Part shown: piece after piece, positions 20,843 to 53,389 of the stretch
How the letters are laid out: every line of letters begins with the position of its first letter
Position numbering within the stretch: the stretch's first letter is position 1
Origin: an uncultured Thermomicrobiales bacterium
GTDB lineage: Bacteria; Chloroflexota; Chloroflexia; Thermomicrobiales; CFX8
Reading direction: 5' to 3'
Length of the DNA stretch: 64,000 nt
Assembly (NCBI GenBank): GCA_964462545.1
Contig: CAYWXR010000007.1
Coordinates: 1,581-65,580, forward strand
The notes under the pieces: model-generated
Database searches by the model: none
Seen by the model: only the letters and a program-made list of their open reading frames with translations
What the model was told of the DNA's origin: nothing
Position numbers and translations under genes: made by a program

Positions 20843-21150
20843 CAAATCGAATACCGATACGATGATGATCGGAACGAGTAATTCCCGAAGCGGGTTGCAG
20901 AGAGCCGGCTGGTTGCTGAAATGCCGGTAGCAGCGCAGGGAATGAATGGATCCGGGAGTTGCGCTCCGAACGGGTAATACCAAGTAGGCGGCGCCGGGGA
21001 CTCCGCCGTTACATGGGAGCGGGATATCGGATAGTCATTGAGCTATCCCGTATTCGCAGAGTGGGCCGTTTCAACAGCGGTCAACAAGGGTGGCACCGCG
21101 GAAGTGTCGAAAGCGCCTCCGTCCCTGTTTTCGGGACGAGAGGTTTTTTT
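20843..21150 (+). promoter_or_regulatory. T-box riboswitch leader, tRNA-Trp specific, with intrinsic terminator
   Basis: - Stem I: UGAUGA region, and a specifier loop closed by CGGA/UCCG and AUUCCC/GGGAAU.
- The 5' side of the specifier loop is ACGAGUA; the 3' side is GAA-UGG-A (UGG at 20947-20949).
- AGAGAG box at 20899-20904.
- T-box sequence GGGUGGCACCGCG at 21088-21100.
- Terminator CCUCCGUCCC-ugutttc-GGGACGAGAGG plus U7 at 21116-21150. Confidence 0.85.
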
Positions 21151-21301: not shown

Positions 21302-22873
21302 ATGACAACTGCAACACCCGACAGGGCAACCCGCCCACGATATTCGCTCACCGTCGAAGAAGTTGATGCCCTCCGTGGCCAGGGCAACATGGTGCCGATC
21401 TACCGCGAGATCATGGCCGACATGGAAACCCCGGTCAGCGCGTACCTGAAGATTGCCGAGGGGCCGTATTCCTTCCTGCTGGAAAGTGTCGAGGGAGGAG
21501 AACGTCTGGCCCGCTATTCGTTCATCGGCACCGATCCCTATCTGACCGTCCGCCTTGAAGATGGCGTTGCCTACGCCAATCACGCCGGCTACAAGCAGGA
21601 GATTCCTTATACCGACCCGCTGGTGGCACTTCAGACCTTCCTGGCGCCGTACAAGCCGGTCGATATTCCCGACCTGCCGCTGTTCCTGGGTGGTGCTGTT
21701 GGCTACCTCTCTTATGAGGCAGTGCGGTACTTCGAAAACATCCCGGTGGCCCGGAACAACCCGAACAATGATCCGGATGGCGTCTACATGTTTGTCGACA
21801 CGATGATCGTGTTCGACCATCTCCAGCGACGGGTCAAGGTAGTTGCCCACGTCCATCTTGACGACTCTACTCCGGTTGAGCGGGCCTACGATCAGGCAAC
21901 CGCCCGGATCGAGGCGCTGGCCGCACGTCTGGTTTCCGGCCGGCCAAATGTGCCGGTGACCGACATCGAGTTTCACGAGACATCGGTTCGCGAACGGGCG
22001 GTGCATAACATCTCCCGCGAGTACTACGATGAGATGATCGCCCGGGCGAAAGAAGACATCACCGCCGGCGACATCTTCCAGGTGGTGCTGTCGCAGCGCG
22101 TCGAGGTTGATACCGCCGCCCATCCTTTCACGCTCTACCGGGCGTTGCGCACGGTCAACCCGTCGCCATTCATGTTCTACCTCCAGGTTGGTGATGAGCA
22201 GATCGTCGGCGCGTCTCCGGAAGCGCTCATCCGTCTCGACCATCGCACGCTCACTACGCATCCGATCGCCGGAACCCGGCGTAGAGGCGCAACCGAAGAG
22301 GAAGATACCGAACTCGAGGCAGACCTGCTTGCCGACGAAAAAGAGCGTGCCGAACATGTCATGCTGGTTGACCTGGCTCGCAACGACATCGGCCGCGTAG
22401 CCAAACCCGGTACGGTGAAGGTTCCGGTGTTGCTGCGGACCGAGCGCTTCTCCCACGTGATCCACCTGGTCAGCCATGTGACCGGCGAACTGCGGGACGA
22501 CCTGAACGCCGTGGACGCGCTGCGGGCCTGCTTCCCGGCCGGCACGGTCAGTGGTGCGCCGAAAATCCGGGCGATGCAGATCATCTCCGAACTTGAGCCG
22601 GATCGGCGCGGATTCTATTCCGGCTGTGTTGGCTACGTTGCCTATACCGGCAACATGGACATGGCCCTCTCGTTGCGGACCGTCGCTGTCCGCAATGGCC
22701 GGGTCTACATGCAGGCCGGGGGCGGTATTGTCTACGACTCGACTGCCGACTTCGAGTACCAGGAGACGCTCAACAAGATGGGCGCCGCGATGCGGGCAAT
22801 TGAACTTGCTGAAGAGATCGAACGTGACGAGCGGGCCGCCCGCCTGATCGCCGGAAACGAGGTATCTGCATGA
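21302..22873 (+). CDS. trpE: anthranilate synthase component I
   Basis: 523 aa. ..[18 protein letters not shown].., ..GAVGYLSYE.., ..[18 protein letters not shown].. canonical TrpE. Confidence 0.97.
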
Positions 22874-36916: not shown

Positions 36917-36945
36917 TTGACAGAATCGGGAAGAGCGGATATCAT
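36917..36945 (+). promoter_or_regulatory. sigma-70-type promoter of the DAHP synthase-2 leader
   Basis: TTGACA (36917-36922), 17 nt, TATCAT (36940-36945). 24 of 29 positions are identical to the trp leader promoter at 20808-20836. Confidence 0.7.
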
Positions 36946-36952
36946 GCGTCGC

Positions 36953-37066
36953 ATGAAAGAAACGGTGCGGACAGACAACCGACTCGAAGCCATGACCAAG
37001 TTTGGTTATTGGTTTTATTTTACCCCTCCGGCGACGCTGGTGGGGGATTCGGTGTTGAGTCCGTAA
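36953..37066 (+). CDS. aromatic-amino-acid leader peptide (37 aa, MKETVRTDNRLEAMTKFGYWFYFTPPATLVGDSVLSP)
   Basis: ATG 36953 lies 7 nt after the -10 box (leaderless geometry). The alternative internal ATG is at 36992. Codons 17-23 (37001-37021) read Phe-Gly-Tyr-Trp-Phe-Tyr-Phe. The stop is at 37064-37066, 29 nt before the terminator stem. Confidence 0.65.
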   Translation: MKETVRTDNRLEAMTKFGYWFYFTPPATLVGDSVLSP

Positions 37067-37094
37067 CCCCCAGAAAAACCAGTGAAGGCGCCGG

Positions 37095-37125
37095 AGCAGA
37101 GGTAGAAACCTCTGCTTTTTTGTTT
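37095..37125 (+). terminator. attenuator terminator upstream of DAHP synthase-2
   Basis: AGCAGAGGT-agaa-ACCTCTGCT followed by TTTTTGTTT, 54 nt upstream of ATG 37179. Confidence 0.8.
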
Positions 37126-37178: not shown

Positions 37179-38216
37179 ATGATCGTCACAATGCGCGAAG
37201 GCAGTCAGGACTCGGAACGTCAGCAGGTGATTGAGCACCTGCGACTGCGCGGCTACCAGACTCACCTGCTGACCGGCTCCGGCCCGGCAGTGATCGGCGT
37301 CAACGGCCGGGCAATCGTCGATGGCCTGACTGCCGAAGTAGCAGCTCTCCCCGGTGTGGAAGTAGTGAACCGGTCCAGCAAGCCCTACATGCTGGCCCAG
37401 CGGACGGCTCGCCCGGAAGGCAGCATTGTCAGGGTTGGAAACGTCGAAATCGGCGGTAGTGAACCGGTCATTATGGCCGGCACCTGTGTTATCGAAAGCC
37501 GCGAAATCACGCTGCAGGCTGCTGATATCGTCAAGGCCGCCGGCGGAACGATCCTCCGCGGTGGTGCCTTCAAGCCGCGTACTTCCCCGTACTCGTTCCA
37601 GGGCCTGGGCGAGGAAGGCCTCCGGATTCTGGCGGAAGCCCGTGATTACTCCGGCCTGCCGGTCGTCACCGAGGTGATGGAACCGGAACAGGTAGAGATG
37701 GTTGCCCATTACGCCGACATGCTCCAGATCGGCTCCCGTAACATGTCGAACTTCCCTCTGTTGCGGCGTGCCGCCGCTGCCGGCAAGCCGATCCTGCTCA
37801 AGCGTGGGTTCTCGGCAACGATCGAGGAGTGGTTGATGTCCGCAGAATACATCCTGGCCGGCGGCAACGATCAGGTTGTACTGTGCGAGCGTGGTATCCG
37901 CGGATTCGACACGGTAACCCGGTTCACCTTCGATCTCAACGCGGTGCCAGTGGTGAAGGAACTGACCCATCTGCCGATCATTGTTGACCCGAGCCATGCA
38001 ACCGGTCGTCGTGAACTGGTGGCACCGATGGCGCTGGCCGGCATTGCAGCCGGGGCACATGGCCTCATTATTGAAATGCACCCGGACCCGGATGGCGCGC
38101 TCTGCGATGCTGCCCAGACGATTTCCCCATCGACCCTGCATGAGATCACTGCGTCAACGCGGGCGATCAGCCAGGCGCTGGGTAACGTCAAGCCACAACT
38201 GGTTGCGGTGGCATAA
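37179..38216 (+). CDS. aroF: 3-deoxy-7-phosphoheptulonate (DAHP) synthase, type I-beta with N-terminal ferredoxin-like domain, paralog 2
   Basis: 345 aa. MIVTMREGSQDSERQQVIEHL.. N-domain, ..[19 protein letters not shown].., ..VDPSH.. Roughly half its residues are identical to 28546-29592. Confidence 0.93.
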   Translation: MIVTMREGSQDSERQQVIEHLRLRGYQTHLLTGSGPAVIGVNGRAIVDGLTAEVAALPGVEVVNRSSKPYMLAQRTARPEGSIVRVGNVEIGGSEPVIMAGTCVIESREITLQAADIVKAAGGTILRGGAFKPRTSPYSFQGLGEEGLRILAEARDYSGLPVVTEVMEPEQVEMVAHYADMLQIGSRNMSNFPLLRRAAAAGKPILLKRGFSATIEEWLMSAEYILAGGNDQVVLCERGIRGFDTVTRFTFDLNAVPVVKELTHLPIIVDPSHATGRRELVAPMALAGIAAGAHGLIIEMHPDPDGALCDAAQTISPSTLHEITASTRAISQALGNVKPQLVAVA

Positions 38217-43996: not shown

Positions 43997-46078
43997 ATGC
44001 TGGAGCACTTCAGCCGTTGGCTGCGGCGTTACAAGGGAGTCGAAGCTAATCCGGTCTACCGGCTAGCTGTCGACGTTGCCACCGGGCGAACCACGTTCGA
44101 GCGTGCCATGGCTGCCGTACAGTCCTATACCGTCATTGCCGGTCTGGCAGACGGTGATCTGATCGAACTCGACAGGCAGGCAGAATTCGAGACTCGCTCC
44201 AACTTCGAGTTCGGATTATTGCTCTCCCAATTGAACGCAGCCGCTGCCCGGGCAAAAGGTTTTGAAAAGGTCTACGTCGATCTCTGCCTGCGAGTGGCAG
44301 ACCTCTTTGAAAGCGTCGCCCGGCTCCCGGAGCGTGATTACTATTTGCGCGAAGCGGTTAACGCCGCCCAGCGAACGTCCTACATTTCCGGAGAGCGCCG
44401 GGTAACCGGTCGGCTGGCACGTCAGGCTTACGAGCGTGGCGATATTGCTGAAGCGCGCCGTCTCTGGACATCCCAGCTCGAGGCCGGACGTGATGACGCC
44501 GACGGCAGGGACGAGGTCGAGACCGCACTTTTGCTCGCGAACCTCGCGATGACCGAAGGTGATACCGCCACTGCTTACGATCTGTACAACCGGGCCGGGA
44601 AATCGGCACGCCGGCTGGGGTTGCATCCCGAGGTTGTCGAGGCCCTGCTTGCCCAGGCAACCATCAGCCGCGAACGTGGCGAGATGGACACTGCGCTGAT
44701 GCTGCTTCACCAGGCGCAGGAGGCTGCCGAACGTACCGTCGATGTCCGCCTGCGAGGGCAGGTTGAGTATCGCACCGGTGCGTTGCTCTGCGACATGAAC
44801 CGACCTTCGGAAGCACTGCCCATCCTGGAACGCGCCATTGAACTGGCGGTCGAGGAGGGAGACCCGACTCTTGAAAGCAGCGCGCTGAACCTGGTGGCGA
44901 ATATCGCCCAACAGGCTGGTGATCACCGCGAGGCTCGCCGGCATTACGAGCGACTGGCGCAACTGGAAGAAGGCATCGGCAACCGGGTAGAGGCCGGCCG
45001 TGCCCTTTGTCAACTTGGCGCCCTTCACTTTGATGCCAACCGTCTGGATGAGGCGTACCGGGTGCTGGTGGATGCCCGGGCAATCGCGTCTCACGCCAAT
45101 GACCAGGATTTCACGATCCAGGTGCATGGCTTGTTGGGGAGCGTGCTGGCAGCGCAGGGGCGTGAGCGCGAGGCGCTCGAGGCTCTGGAGGTTGCTGTTG
45201 CCGGCAGTCATCAGGCCGGAGATTACATCGCCGAGGCTCGTTGGCTGGTTGCGGCCGGTGAGGCAATGTTGCGATTTGGTGGCACTGACGAGGCCGCATC
45301 GTTGGCTTCCCAGGCCGAGCAACTTGCCAGAATGGATGACAACCTGATTCTTCAGGCACAGATTCATGCCCTGAATGGTCAGATTGCGCTGGCACGTGGA
45401 TTGCTTTCCGACGCGACCGATGCCTATCAGGATGCAGTCTATGCGTCCAATATGGCCGGGCAACCACGGGAGACACTCCGGTACTTGCCATTGCTGGCCC
45501 GCCTGACACTGGAATCCGGTGCGGTGGACAAGGCACTTGAGCACCTTGCAGCGGCCATCGAAGTTGCGGAGCAACTCGGCGAGCAGCGGACGCTTTGCTC
45601 GCTGTATGGCCAGACCGCACGTATTCACCAGCGTCGAGAGAACTACGATGAAGCGGTGATTTTCTACCGGAGCGCTCTGGATGTCGCTACCGAATTGAAT
45701 GACGACCGGTTGATCGCCCGTGCGACCCAGGGACTGGCTACGTCGTTGGATACCGCCGGGCGCACCGACGAGGCAATCGAGAATTATCGTCTGGCAATCG
45801 AGGCGACCGAGCGTATCGGCGACTTGCGGGCAGCGTCGCGGATTCACTACAACCTTGGCGCGATCTATGCGGATAACAGCCGCGATGACATGGCTCGGCG
45901 GCACCTGGTGCGCGCTCGTGACAGCGCCGAATCCGTCGGTGATGTTGATCTGGCAGACCTGGCAGAGAGCCTGCTGGGGATGCTGGCTCCGGTGGGAACG
46001 TTCTATGACCACTATCCCGAAGACCTTGCTGTAAGCGAGGAACCGGCCCGCCCCCGTGACTACCCGATGCTTCACTGA
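43997..46078 (+). CDS. large TPR-like repeat protein, function unknown
   Basis: 693 aa. Ala/Leu/Glu/Arg-rich with helical repeats of about 40 aa (..AL.L.G.....G....A...Y..AL..A...GD..). The 645-aa antisense ORF is a shadow. Confidence 0.7.
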   Translation: MLEHFSRWLRRYKGVEANPVYRLAVDVATGRTTFERAMAAVQSYTVIAGLADGDLIELDRQAEFETRSNFEFGLLLSQLNAAAARAKGFEKVYVDLCLRVADLFESVARLPERDYYLREAVNAAQRTSYISGERRVTGRLARQAYERGDIAEARRLWTSQLEAGRDDADGRDEVETALLLANLAMTEGDTATAYDLYNRAGKSARRLGLHPEVVEALLAQATISRERGEMDTALMLLHQAQEAAERTVDVRLRGQVEYRTGALLCDMNRPSEALPILERAIELAVEEGDPTLESSALNLVANIAQQAGDHREARRHYERLAQLEEGIGNRVEAGRALCQLGALHFDANRLDEAYRVLVDARAIASHANDQDFTIQVHGLLGSVLAAQGREREALEALEVAVAGSHQAGDYIAEARWLVAAGEAMLRFGGTDEAASLASQAEQLARMDDNLILQAQIHALNGQIALARGLLSDATDAYQDAVYASNMAGQPRETLRYLPLLARLTLESGAVDKALEHLAAAIEVAEQLGEQRTLCSLYGQTARIHQRRENYDEAVIFYRSALDVATELNDDRLIARATQGLATSLDTAGRTDEAIENYRLAIEATERIGDLRAASRIHYNLGAIYADNSRDDMARRHLVRARDSAESVGDVDLADLAESLLGMLAPVGTFYDHYPEDLAVSEEPARPRDYPMLH

Positions 46079-51045: not shown

Positions 51046-52107
51046 TTACATCAAACCATCAGCCAGCAGCATTTCGGCGTTGAGAATCGACGCGCCGGCA
51101 GCACCACGGATGGTGTTGTGACCGAGCACGACAAACTTGATATCCAGCACCGGGCACTCGCGAACCCGGCCGACAACCGAAGCCATCCCGCGTTCGACGT
51201 CGCGGTCCAGGATTGGCTGCGGGCGATCCGGAAGGTCGCTGACGATGATCGGGGCCGACGGGGCAGAGTGCAGGTTCATTTCCTGCGGGCGTCCGCGATA
51301 GGCACGAAGGACTTCGATAACCTCTTCCGGGCTGGCCTTCTTGCCCAGTTTGAGGTTGACCGTTTCCATGTGGCCGTGGCGCACCGGAACCCGATTGCAC
51401 TGGGCGCTTATCTTCAGATCGGCTTCCTCGAAGCCGGAGCCGTTGAACGTACCGAGCAACTTGCGCGACTCGGACTCCATCTTTTCTTCCTCGCCACCGA
51501 TGTATGGAACGACGTTGTCGATCATGTCCAGCGAGGGAACGCCCGGATATCCGGCGCCGGAAACAGCCTGCATCGTTGATACCAGACAGGTCTCGATGCC
51601 AAAGGCATCCCAGATCGGCTTGAGCGCCAGCACAAGATGAATCGTCGAGCAGTTCGGGTTGGTAACGATAAAGCCCTTGTCGAAGCCGCGATTGCGCTGC
51701 TGGAGTTTGATGGCCGCAGCATGGTCAGCGTTGACTTCCGGGATCATCAGCGGCACATCGTCTTCCATGCGGTTGTCACGGGCGTTGGAGAAGACGTAGT
51801 GACCATCCTTTGCAAGGCGGAGTTCTGTCTCGCGGGCAATGCCGCCCGGCAGAGAGGCGAAGACGACATCAGCGGTCAGCGAGTCTTCCGGGTGCTTGAT
51901 GGTCATCCCGGCGACTTCGTTTGGTGGGGCGGCGCTGAGTTTCCAGTTGGTGTATTCGCCGTAGATCTTGCCGGCGCTGCGTTCGCTGCCGACAACTTCG
52001 GTCAGTTTGAAATTCGGGTGGCCATCGAGAAGTTCGACATAGCGCTGGCCCACGCTACCTGTTGCGCCGAGAACGGCAACGCTCAACTGCTTGCCCATGG
52101 ATTGCAT
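51046..52107 (-). CDS. asd: aspartate-semialdehyde dehydrogenase
   Basis: 353 aa. ..VAVLGATGSVGQRYVELL.., ..NPNCSTI.. (active-site Cys). Start is ATG 52107 or ATG 52098. Confidence 0.93.
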   Translation of the reverse strand: MQSMGKQLSVAVLGATGSVGQRYVELLDGHPNFKLTEVVGSERSAGKIYGEYTNWKLSAAPPNEVAGMTIKHPEDSLTADVVFASLPGGIARETELRLAKDGHYVFSNARDNRMEDDVPLMIPEVNADHAAAIKLQQRNRGFDKGFIVTNPNCSTIHLVLALKPIWDAFGIETCLVSTMQAVSGAGYPGVPSLDMIDNVVPYIGGEEEKMESESRKLLGTFNGSGFEEADLKISAQCNRVPVRHGHMETVNLKLGKKASPEEVIEVLRAYRGRPQEMNLHSAPSAPIIVSDLPDRPQPILDRDVERGMASVVGRVRECPVLDIKFVVLGHNTIRGAAGASILNAEMLLADGLM

Positions 52108-52141
52108 TCCCTTTCTGCCCGCCCATCAGGGGCCGGGGCAC

Positions 52142-52167
52142 AAAAAAACAGGAGCCCTTGCTCCTGC
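52142..52167 (-). terminator. attenuator terminator upstream of asd
   Basis: Minus strand: CAGGAGC-aagg-GCTCCTG followed by T7 (A-run 52142-52148 on the plus strand), 35 nt upstream of the asd ATG. Confidence 0.8.
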
Positions 52168-52199
52168 TGCCGGTACACCTGTCACGTTTCTGGAAGTCG

Positions 52200-52289
52200 C
52201 TAACACCTCCCCCCACGTGACGCCGCACCGGCGCCCGCGGTAGTGGTAATAATGGTGTTCATGATGCTGGCCAGAAACTGGTCGCGCAT
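52200..52289 (-). CDS. Thr/Ile-rich leader peptide (29 aa, MRDQFLASIMNTIITTTAGAGAASRGGRC)
   Basis: GGAG 9 nt upstream of ATG 52289. The run Thr-Ile-Ile-Thr-Thr-Thr is at 52256-52239. The stop at 52202-52200 lies 33 nt before the terminator stem. It resembles E. coli thrL (..[17 protein letters not shown]). Confidence 0.6.
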   Translation of the reverse strand: MRDQFLASIMNTIITTTAGAGAASRGGRC

Positions 52290-52367
52290 TGATGGATACT
52301 CCATCATCTGGTGAGATCATGCGAGCGCCGGGTGAACTCCGGAACCCGCAACCATTCAACAGTGGGG

Positions 52368-52396
52368 ACAATAGCAGCGAAATGCGTAAGCGTCAA
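52368..52396 (-). promoter_or_regulatory. candidate promoter of the asd leader
   Basis: Minus strand: TTGACG (52396-52391), 17 nt, TATTGT (52373-52368). The -35 box overlaps the SD region of divergent hom. Confidence 0.5.
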
Positions 52397-52408
52397 GGGG
52401 AGGACATC

Positions 52409-53389
52409 ATGGGCGGTCAGCCGATCGGGTTGGCGATTCTGGGTTTGGGGACGATTGGCAGCGAGGTTGCACGCGCTGCGATGGCTGATGACCGTCTGCG
52501 TCTGGTTGCGGTGCTGGACCGTGGTCCGGAACGCGCGGAACGCGCCGGCATTGCCCCTGCGTTGATCCTGACAGATGGCAACGAGGTGGTGGATCACCCG
52601 GATGTTCAGGTCGTTGTCGAGGTACTGGGCCGGGAGCAACCAGCCGGTGACCTGATGGTACGTGCCTTGGCAAATGGCAAGCACGTGGTAACTGCCAACA
52701 AGGAAGCCGTGTCGAAACAGTTGCCATCCATCCTCGCGGCAGCCAGGGACGGAAAGTCCGGTTTTCTTTGCGAGGCGAGCGTCGGTGGTGGTATCCCGCT
52801 GTTTGTGAGCCTGAAAGCTGTGATGGATTCCAATCGCATCGAGCGGGTGCGTGGCATCGTCAACGGCACCACGAACTATATTCTCTGGAAGATGGAAACC
52901 GAGGGCGCCGGGTATGACGAGGCACTGGCGCAGGCCCAGGAACTGGGTTACGCCGAGCCGGACCCGACTGCCGATGTTGAGGGCTTCGACGCCAGCTACA
53001 AACTGGCGATCATCGGTTCGCTGATTTCCGGGCGGCATATCCGGCCGGAAGAGATTGACCGCACCGGCATCTCGGGTGTCTCCTCGGCCGACATCGAGGA
53101 CGCAAAGCAGCGCGGAGGGACAATCCGTCTGATTGCGTCGGCCGAACGGGATGGTGATGATATCCGGTTGAAGGTCGCACCGACGTTCGTATCGGGTGAT
53201 GACCTGTTCTCGCGGGTTTCCGCGAACTATAACGCACTGGAGATCGTCGGCGATCGGGTTGGACCGGTGTTGCTCCACGGTCAGGGAGCGGGACCGGCTC
53301 CGACATCCAGCGCGATTCTGTCCGACGTATTCGAGGCCGTTCGTACCGGTGCGGCCGCAACTCCGGCGGTTAATCTGTCCACGACTTGA
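52409..53389 (+). CDS. hom: homoserine dehydrogenase (no C-terminal ACT domain)
   Basis: From ATG 52409 (GGGGAGGA upstream): ..LAILGLGTIGSEVAR.., ..NGTTNYIL.., ..LAQAQELGYAEPDPTADVEG.. The ORF is open from 52289. Confidence 0.9.
   Translation: MGGQPIGLAILGLGTIGSEVARAAMADDRLRLVAVLDRGPERAERAGIAPALILTDGNEVVDHPDVQVVVEVLGREQPAGDLMVRALANGKHVVTANKEAVSKQLPSILAAARDGKSGFLCEASVGGGIPLFVSLKAVMDSNRIERVRGIVNGTTNYILWKMETEGAGYDEALAQAQELGYAEPDPTADVEGFDASYKLAIIGSLISGRHIRPEEIDRTGISGVSSADIEDAKQRGGTIRLIASAERDGDDIRLKVAPTFVSGDDLFSRVSANYNALEIVGDRVGPVLLHGQGAGPAPTSSAILSDVFEAVRTGAAATPAVNLSTT

Follow-up and report, generated by a model that had tools for sequence, protein, structure and literature searches.

What does the sequence upstream of asd, the gene for aspartate-semialdehyde dehydrogenase, do in a bacterium of the Thermomicrobiales, an order of the phylum Chloroflexota? 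The window, that is, the whole stretch of 64,000 nucleotides that was analysed (contig CAYWXR010000007.1 of assembly GCA_964462545.1, from an uncultured Thermomicrobiales bacterium), carries asd on its minus strand behind a leader with a small open reading frame (ORF), a long hairpin and an intrinsic terminator. An earlier account made from the letters alone, here called the sequence-only reading, had proposed that asd is attenuated according to the availability of Thr and Ile. Comparison with orthologues supports this proposal, and we consider it quite probable that the asd leader is a ribosome-mediated attenuator through which asd would be set by charged tRNA-Thr and, in this lineage, tRNA-Ile. 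Thr(/Ile)-responsive, ribosome-mediated attenuation is the best reading because the promoter, the ORF, its codons, the position of its stop and the covarying helices are all conserved.

The first component is the ORF itself. The sequence-only reading had described 29 codons preceded by GGAG at a distance of nine nucleotides and containing the run Thr-Ile-Ile-Thr-Thr-Thr, and the sequence holds all of these. The ORF lies at 52200..52289 on the minus strand, from ATG at 52289 to TAG at 52202-52200, and reads MRDQFLASIMNTIITTTAGAGAASRGGRC; the Shine-Dalgarno (SD)-like GGAG occupies 52299..52302, and the regulatory codons ACC ATT ATT ACC ACT ACC occupy 52239..52256. The Gly/Ala tail of the peptide is the coding content of the GC-rich 5′ strand of the hairpin. 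An automatic gene caller also called the 29-codon ORF on two of three metagenome contigs with an identical locus. The leaders of the three metagenome contigs that encode an identical asd protein are the same but for one G-to-T difference at 52211 in contig L162, so they carry no population signal; this change would replace Gly by Trp in the leader tail and falls in the G-run of the 5′ strand, mostly in an internal loop.

Is the ORF kept in relatives? An asd protein search that retrieved Thermomicrobiales and Chloroflexia genomes (57–80% identity), a few additions from a metagenome scan and the covariance model described below together gave a set of 23 leaders from about 12 Thermomicrobiales lineages, grouped by eye: 21 upstream of asd and two upstream of an aspartate kinase-asd pair. 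The device is present at 21/21 loci where asd has its own upstream region. The sequence-only reading had named orthologous regions without a Thr/Ile-rich mini-ORF as the observation that would count against it, and all 23 leaders keep the mini-ORF in frame, with 24–29 codons in the asd leaders and 34 and 36 in the two kinase-asd leaders (L017 and L020). A purine-rich SD-like motif stands no more than 18 nucleotides before the start in most of the 20 orthologues with upstream sequence, a few of these motifs being weak. The peptide shows no conservation in its N-terminal part, in contrast to its Thr/Ile block. Thr and Ile together make up 2–8 of the last 10 codons before the hairpin across the 23 leaders, as against about 11% in the long ORFs of the window, and in the 21 asd leaders Thr or Ile codons stand directly before a conserved GCCGG. 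All four Thr codons are used across the 23 leaders, so the variation falls on third positions. ACT occurs in every leader and accounts for 39 of the 122 leader Thr codons (32%), a roughly threefold enrichment over about 10% in the ORFs of the window. Moreover, the GCCGG mostly starts at +13 from the first base of an ACT codon, as counted by eye in the orthologue leaders; from the size of the ribosome footprint, when ACT occupies the A site the front of the ribosome would reach about the start of GCCGG.

The end of the ORF is fixed as well. The leader stop codon, whether TAG, TGA or TAA, sits at one structural place, the apical loop of the hairpin, in all 23 leaders, and 50–60 nucleotides separate it from the U-run in the 21 asd leaders. 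The terminator too is kept in 23/23. A covariance model built from the asd leaders (R1) recovers every one of them plus two more, L017 at 1220-1395 and L020 at 40-215, where the leader stands 5′ of aspartate kinase followed by asd and the peptides are MNDRGRTTTGTMAMTVISTTEITTIPPAGSGVRG and MKSFVGHTTGMDMRMTTSMINIIETTICWPAVQGVR. Upstream comparison and the covariance model search both found the element missing from more distant Chloroflexi. A weak match of the model elsewhere in the window (44916-45011, plus strand; 15.9 bits, E of about 0.05), which lacks the terminator part, is probably due to chance.

The same comparison bears on which frame is translated. A second frame, rich in His and Tyr (..HHEHHYYHY..), is open in the window as an 81-codon ORF starting with TTG at 52371-52126, and an element translated in that frame would sense His or Tyr. 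The sequence-only reading had kept this frame as an alternative, and the leaders decide for the Thr/Ile frame. The His and Tyr residues are a by-product of ACN repeats and drift among H, Y, D and N between lineages; the stop is at no conserved position, and in the window the frame passes straight through the terminator. It starts without an SD, and asd has no connection with His or Tyr. Across the leaders the two other frames hold either stops or a shifting mixture of these residues. For its H/Y/D/N variation and its unconserved end the His/Tyr frame was rejected, and a His- or Tyr-sensing element can be dismissed with near certainty.

What structure does the ORF run into? The 236-nucleotide leader has a minimum free energy of -103.2 kcal/mol (z = -3.57), a stability not reached by any of 200 shuffles. 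A long imperfect hairpin, the candidate antiterminator, is predicted both by minimum-free-energy folding and in the RNAalifold consensus and spans 52166..52234 on the minus strand; its 5′ strand runs from GCCGG at 52232-52228 and its 3′ strand to CCGGC at 52173-52169, with a possible 2-bp extension to 52167-52166 and the leader stop (52202-52200) in the apical loop. A small local hairpin, GGCGCCG-GTG-CGGCGTC, was read from the sequence at 52219..52235; as a candidate protector or pause hairpin it would keep GCCG paired. Most lineages have a local GC hairpin that covers GCC(G), although the registers differ. The intrinsic terminator, placed by a terminator scan at 52142..52168, has a stem of (AG)CAGGAGC and GCTCCTG(TT) with the loop AAGG and seven T residues: CAGGAGC-AAGG-GCTCCTG lies at 52166-52149, the stem reaches 9 bp from 52168 when A-U and G-U pairs are counted, and the T7 occupies 52148-52142. 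Both the long hairpin and, to within a few bases, the terminator had been correctly picked out from the letters alone.

Both helices covary. In the RNAalifold consensus a basal helix, GCCGG(NNN):(NNN)CCGGC, closes the long hairpin, and the terminator begins at the very next nucleotide, a linker of 0 nucleotides. The basal helix shows UA/CG/AU at column pair 27:92 and UG/GC/AU/GU/UA at 28:91, and the terminator shows compensatory changes among AGGAGC:GCTCCT, AGAGGC:GCCTCT and AGGGGT:GCCTCT, with 99% of its cells paired. For the structure as a whole 90% of cells pair, against 28–51% when the partners are slid, and the covariation score of both helices was matched by none of 500 shuffles. In the leader alignment the hairpin shows no sequence conservation in its interior. 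A separate pattern is seen at the 3′ edge of the terminator, where the invariant CTG is followed in the 20 leaders of alignment A1 (columns 121-125) by a series of CCGG plus T4, CCG plus T5, CC plus T5-6, C plus T6 and T7; across lineages a longer U-run comes at the cost of basal G-C pairs in the terminator, while the 5′ side, CCGGCAG, is invariant.

Such near-invariance could itself be read differently. GCCGG and CCGGCAG change hardly at all and reappear in another leader of the window, so they could mark a common binding site, and DNA of 60% GC often has open frames; the hairpin and terminator might then answer to an RNA-binding protein, a metabolite or a tRNA, with the small ORF incidental. 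A search of the whole window against Rfam 15 at gathering thresholds left the leader region unmatched, its only hit being a T-box elsewhere, and even at E<=10 over 51900-52700 a T-box was not listed; membership in the T-box family (RF00230) or in a riboswitch family was rejected. The unconserved hairpin interior means that there is no aptamer-like core. The Thr/Ile codons vary in number and synonymously while the other two frames hold mixed residues or stops, all three stop codons appear at one structural position, and a common factor would leave unexplained why Thr codons precede asd and the aspartate kinase genes while aromatic codons precede DAHP synthase. Control that bypasses translation is very improbable on these grounds.

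How, then, might the leader peptide act? Ribosome-mediated attenuation would run as follows. Transcription would start about 7 nucleotides past TATTGT, the -10 hexamer of the asd promoter, and after some 70 untranslated nucleotides the 29-codon ORF would be translated. The Thr/Ile codons lie just 5′ of GCCGG, and the ORF continues through the 5′ strand of the hairpin to end in its apical loop. With Thr and Ile plentiful, the ribosome would trail the polymerase through the 5′ strand and come to rest on the stop codon, 50–60 nucleotides before the U-run. The long hairpin would be blocked, the small local hairpin would recapture GCCG, and the full terminator would form and end the transcript at 52142. 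The conserved spacing of stop and U-run fits this timing of ribosome and polymerase. With Thr or Ile scarce, the ribosome would stall, the conserved rare ACT bringing its front to roughly the first G of GCCGG, and the whole long hairpin would form before the 3′ arm of the terminator is made. The base of that hairpin would then take up basal nucleotides of the terminator, leaving a stem weakened and shifted away from the U-run and allowing more read-through into asd.

Competition between the two structures is suggested by the nucleotides that they share. All 20 aligned rows have the basal C:G pair of the terminator, whose C is at the same time the closing C of the basal helix; in the clade of the window this shared C is supplied by an inserted AGC. 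The overlap reaches further in some lineages: to the next pair (GC) in 12/20, to the following pair in 8/20 and to a fourth (CG) in 6/20. With CCGGC and the shared C tied up in the long hairpin, terminator stability drops from between -14 and -22 kcal/mol to between -6 and -10.6 kcal/mol in 18/21 leaders, a loss of 5–15 kcal/mol; most of those 18 also gain a gap of up to 5 nucleotides ahead of the U-run. Enforcing either the antiterminator or the terminator gives states no more than 4.7 kcal/mol apart in 21/21 leaders; in the window these stand at -51.8 and -54.9 kcal/mol, respectively. For L011 and L015 the optimum under an enforced terminator includes the small GCC(G) hairpin along with the full terminator, the arrangement expected of a protector hairpin.

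Several observations weigh against this mechanism, whose least secure step is the antiterminator, for which the sequence-only reading had named no candidate. The long hairpin leaves the 5′ arm of the terminator unsequestered, the two having only 1–5 basal nucleotides in common. In the window clade the three-nucleotide AGC insertion lets the core helix and the terminator coexist, and competition in the window itself requires a 2-bp G-C extension across a bulged A. Folding was repeated with ribosome footprints masked at ACT, at the last Thr codon and at the stop codon, on full-length RNA, on nascent RNA and also with pairs spanning the ribosome forbidden. None of these conditions removed the terminator or clearly split the starved from the replete state; in the masked equilibrium folds its upper stem kept a pairing probability of 0.9–1.0 in nearly all leaders and conditions, L003 and L005 being the exceptions, and in nascent RNA only the first C of its 5′ arm was reliably paired. 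Stalling at the final Thr codon would place the ribosome over GCCGG and so favour termination. L008 and L010 have only two Thr codons, and a brake on asd specific to Thr and Ile would also restrict Met and any synthesis of diaminopimelate or Lys. With the terminator arm left uncovered by the hairpin and the terminator kept in equilibrium folding, we can only infer the direction of the response and the sufficiency of basal competition for read-through.

An antiterminator of the sequestering kind was also looked for directly. With RNAduplex the 5′ arm of the terminator was compared with the whole leader in 21 orthologues, and the sole recurrent partner was the segment just after the Thr codons; partners in the 5′ untranslated region (UTR), the early ORF and the apical region were not conserved in that set. 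Two pairings of the window were set aside. The first joins GTTTCTGG (52278-52271, codons 4–6) to its perfect 8-bp complement CCAGAAAC (52193-52186, in the 3′ strand of the long hairpin), a match of which about 0.4 is expected by chance and which is not conserved in the closest relatives, L001 and L002. The second, between codons 4–7 and the terminator arm (-11.6 kcal/mol), is likewise not conserved.

The same layout recurs at another gene of this genome. The sequence-only reading had counted the asd leader as the second leader-peptide device in the window, and there is indeed an aromatic-codon leader at 36917-37121 on the plus strand, 5′ of the gene for DAHP synthase (37179-38213, plus strand). 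Behind the promoter TTGACA-17-TATCAT its ORF (36992-37066) encodes MTKFGYWFYFTPPATLVGDSVLSP, with seven Phe/Tyr/Trp codons in the stretch FGYWFYF, and the scaffold extends over 36992-37121. Its long hairpin, formed by CTCCGGCG and CGCCGGAG, directly adjoins the terminator, GCAGAGGT-AGAA-ACCTCTGC followed by T6. Model R1 matches this leader with 27 bits (E of about 1e-4), and by our own reading by eye the 3′ halves of the two leaders are about 70% alike.

There is another way in which the terminator could be defeated. The Thr/Ile leader peptide may be real, and the long helix, being rigid and with the ribosome stalled at its foot, may sterically block closure of the terminator in the exit channel of the polymerase. 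The 0-nucleotide linker of the consensus points in this direction, as do the abutting layout of the aromatic leader, a common sequence that can be as short as one nucleotide, the position of GCCGG near where the front of a ribosome reading ACT in the A site would be, and the lack of a sequestering antiterminator in equilibrium folding. The argument is purely geometric and speculative, we know of no precedent for anti-termination by an abutting helix plus a stalled ribosome, and competition for 4–5 basal pairs already accounts for a switch in L011, L013, L015 and L016. We regard the steric explanation as rather improbable. Somewhat less doubtful, though still unlikely, is a broader proposal: that the Thermomicrobiales use a modular scaffold, with regulatory codons followed by GCCGG, the end of the ORF in the apical loop, CCGGCAG and a terminator. 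Codons would be swapped according to pathway (Thr/Ile at asd and aspartate kinase-asd, aromatic at DAHP synthase), and anti-termination would come from the long helix and stalled ribosome abutting the base of the terminator rather than from sequestration of its arm. If true, such a scaffold would be a mechanistic variant of attenuation that works through basal pairs or steric hindrance. The minimal overlap of hairpin and terminator in two unrelated leaders of one genome thus makes a simple natural test of how much competition is needed to defeat an intrinsic terminator.

Leader peptides are accompanied by T-boxes, as the sequence-only reading had suggested. The window holds a T-box leader at 20856-21129 on the plus strand (107.9 bits), upstream of trpE, the gene for anthranilate synthase component I (21302-22870). 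With leader peptides at asd and DAHP synthase alongside the T-box at trpE, this genome mixes the two devices.

Where does the leader stand with respect to its genes? The regulated gene, asd, encodes an EA-type aspartate-semialdehyde dehydrogenase at 51046..52098 on the minus strand (TIGR00978, 437 bits; NF006416, 462 bits), and its divergent neighbour hom, for homoserine dehydrogenase, lies at 52409..53389 on the plus strand (NF004976, 331 bits). The 5′ region of hom overlaps the asd promoter and leader, and this divergent layout is kept in orthologues. From the orthologues, an SD at proper spacing and automatic gene calls, the start of asd is the ATG at 52098 (MGKQ...) and not 52107, so that 43 nucleotides, rather than the 35 given earlier, separate the end of the U-run from asd.

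The asd promoter proposed by the sequence-only reading is present. It lies at 52368..52396 on the minus strand, with the -35 hexamer TTGACG at 52396-52391, a 17-nucleotide spacer and the -10 hexamer TATTGT at 52373-52368. It is the sole σ70-like match to a consensus scan in 2.5 kb, a result not significant alone, with 0.7 expected by chance; TTGAC(N)-17-TA(T/C)(C/T)GT recurs at the same position in 20/20 asd leaders with upstream sequence. The SD of hom, which had been thought to overlap the asd -35 box, is GGGGAGG at 52397-52403 and directly adjoins the hexamer at 52391-52396 without overlap.

On the opposite strand of the asd 5′ UTR is a conserved box: a TTGCCA-like hexamer, 17–18 nucleotides, and then TACGCT, TAGGCT or TACCCT, in general TA(C/G)NCT. 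This hom-sense -35/-10 pair is seen in about a dozen orthologues, including L001, L002, L003, L005, L006, L008, L010, L011, L013 and L021; the copy in the window is weak, TGGTGA-18-TGAACT at 52309-52338 (plus strand). The box is probably the hom promoter, which would probably explain why the untranslated 5′ part of the asd leader is so long. If the box is the hom promoter, the core promoters of asd and hom interleave and polymerases would compete for binding.

A further explanation of the terminator is that it acts constitutively, either producing a short leader transcript or insulating asd from the interleaved hom/asd promoter region, with asd controlled mainly at its promoter. The apparent hom promoter opposite the asd 5′ UTR, by which both core promoters overlap, would suit this explanation, as would a terminator that forms in every folding condition tried. 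A strong constitutive terminator would, however, silence an essential biosynthetic gene that has no other visible promoter, the σ70 consensus scan having found no promoter-like site between the U-run and asd, and it would leave the conserved Thr/Ile ORF and its fixed stop position unexplained. A constitutive terminator is even less credible than control that bypasses translation, although it ranks above a His- or Tyr-sensing element.

What would Thr/Ile-responsive attenuation of asd mean for the cell? A brake on asd by Thr and Ile only would imply that the aspartate pathway here mainly serves Thr, Ile and Met, and it would be a hint on how lysine and the cell-wall diamino acid are made. Genome pipelines are inconsistent in their treatment of the 29-codon gene and the premature terminator, and the element gives a direct handle for annotating both.

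How does the asd leader compare with known systems? The sequence-only reading had called it thrL-like, and the comparison with thrL of E. coli holds for how the element works and fails for family membership. The alikeness is in the parts: a short ORF containing consecutive Thr and Ile codons, a GC-rich Gly/Ala stretch that makes up the 5′ hairpin strand, an intrinsic terminator, and an early enzyme of the aspartate pathway as the target, which is aspartate kinase-homoserine dehydrogenase there and asd or aspartate kinase-asd here. In the Rfam search of 51900-52700 at E<=10 the leader region gave only a sub-threshold match to Thr_leader (RF00506) and two chance matches. Membership in Thr_leader was rejected, the match scoring 14.6 bits (E = 7.2), short of the gathering score of 55, and covering model positions 15-57 of 118. 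With Thr_leader below threshold and no T-box match, the asd leader falls outside the enterobacterial thrL and T-box families. The antiterminator of thrL pairs with the whole 5′ arm of its terminator, and the thrL stop codon comes directly after that strand; in contrast, the ORF of the asd leader runs on for about 12 codons to the apical loop, and its hairpin and terminator share only those few basal nucleotides. There is no homology in sequence or structure, and the asd leader belongs to another phylum.

The scheme of trp-type attenuation, with its 1:2, 2:3 and 3:4 pairings, offers a second comparison. There, as proposed here, the position of the ribosome picks between RNA folds ahead of a terminator, and in the asd leader the small local hairpin could act as 1:2 and the long hairpin as 2:3. 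The difference is that the overlap between 2:3 and 3:4 is minimal in the asd leader and the terminator survives in the equilibrium models. T-box leaders also control amino-acid genes by anti-termination and do so by sensing uncharged tRNA, whereas the asd leader has neither a specifier loop nor a T-box sequence and contains a translated ORF instead.

Leader peptides outside the Proteobacteria offer a further comparison. The lysine cluster of Thermus thermophilus has a Lys leader. Leader-peptide attenuators of the Actinobacteria have been described for trp, ilvB, trpS and leuS, where some components of the classical scheme are likewise absent; in the same survey, threonine genes had no conserved RNA element in front of them (PMC1262725). 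A survey of 2010 described a His leader of hisS/hisZ in Bacilli and so added the Firmicutes to leader peptides that had until then been known only from Proteobacteria and Actinobacteria (PMC2965389). Like the asd leader, these systems combine a short ORF of cognate codons with a terminator in Gram-positive or deep-branching lineages; none of them (trp, ilvB, trpS, leuS, hisS/hisZ or the Thermus Lys leader) serves asd or comes from the Chloroflexota. A literature search, with most subscription journals outside its scope, returned no report of such a leader for Chloroflexi or for asd. Set beside these systems, the asd leader is most likely a familiar amino-acid-sensing switch at a new gene in a new bacterial group. 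It would extend leader-peptide attenuation to the Chloroflexota, through the Thermomicrobiales, and trunk enzymes of the aspartate pathway would be new among its targets, with asd here and aspartate kinase-asd in sister lineages.

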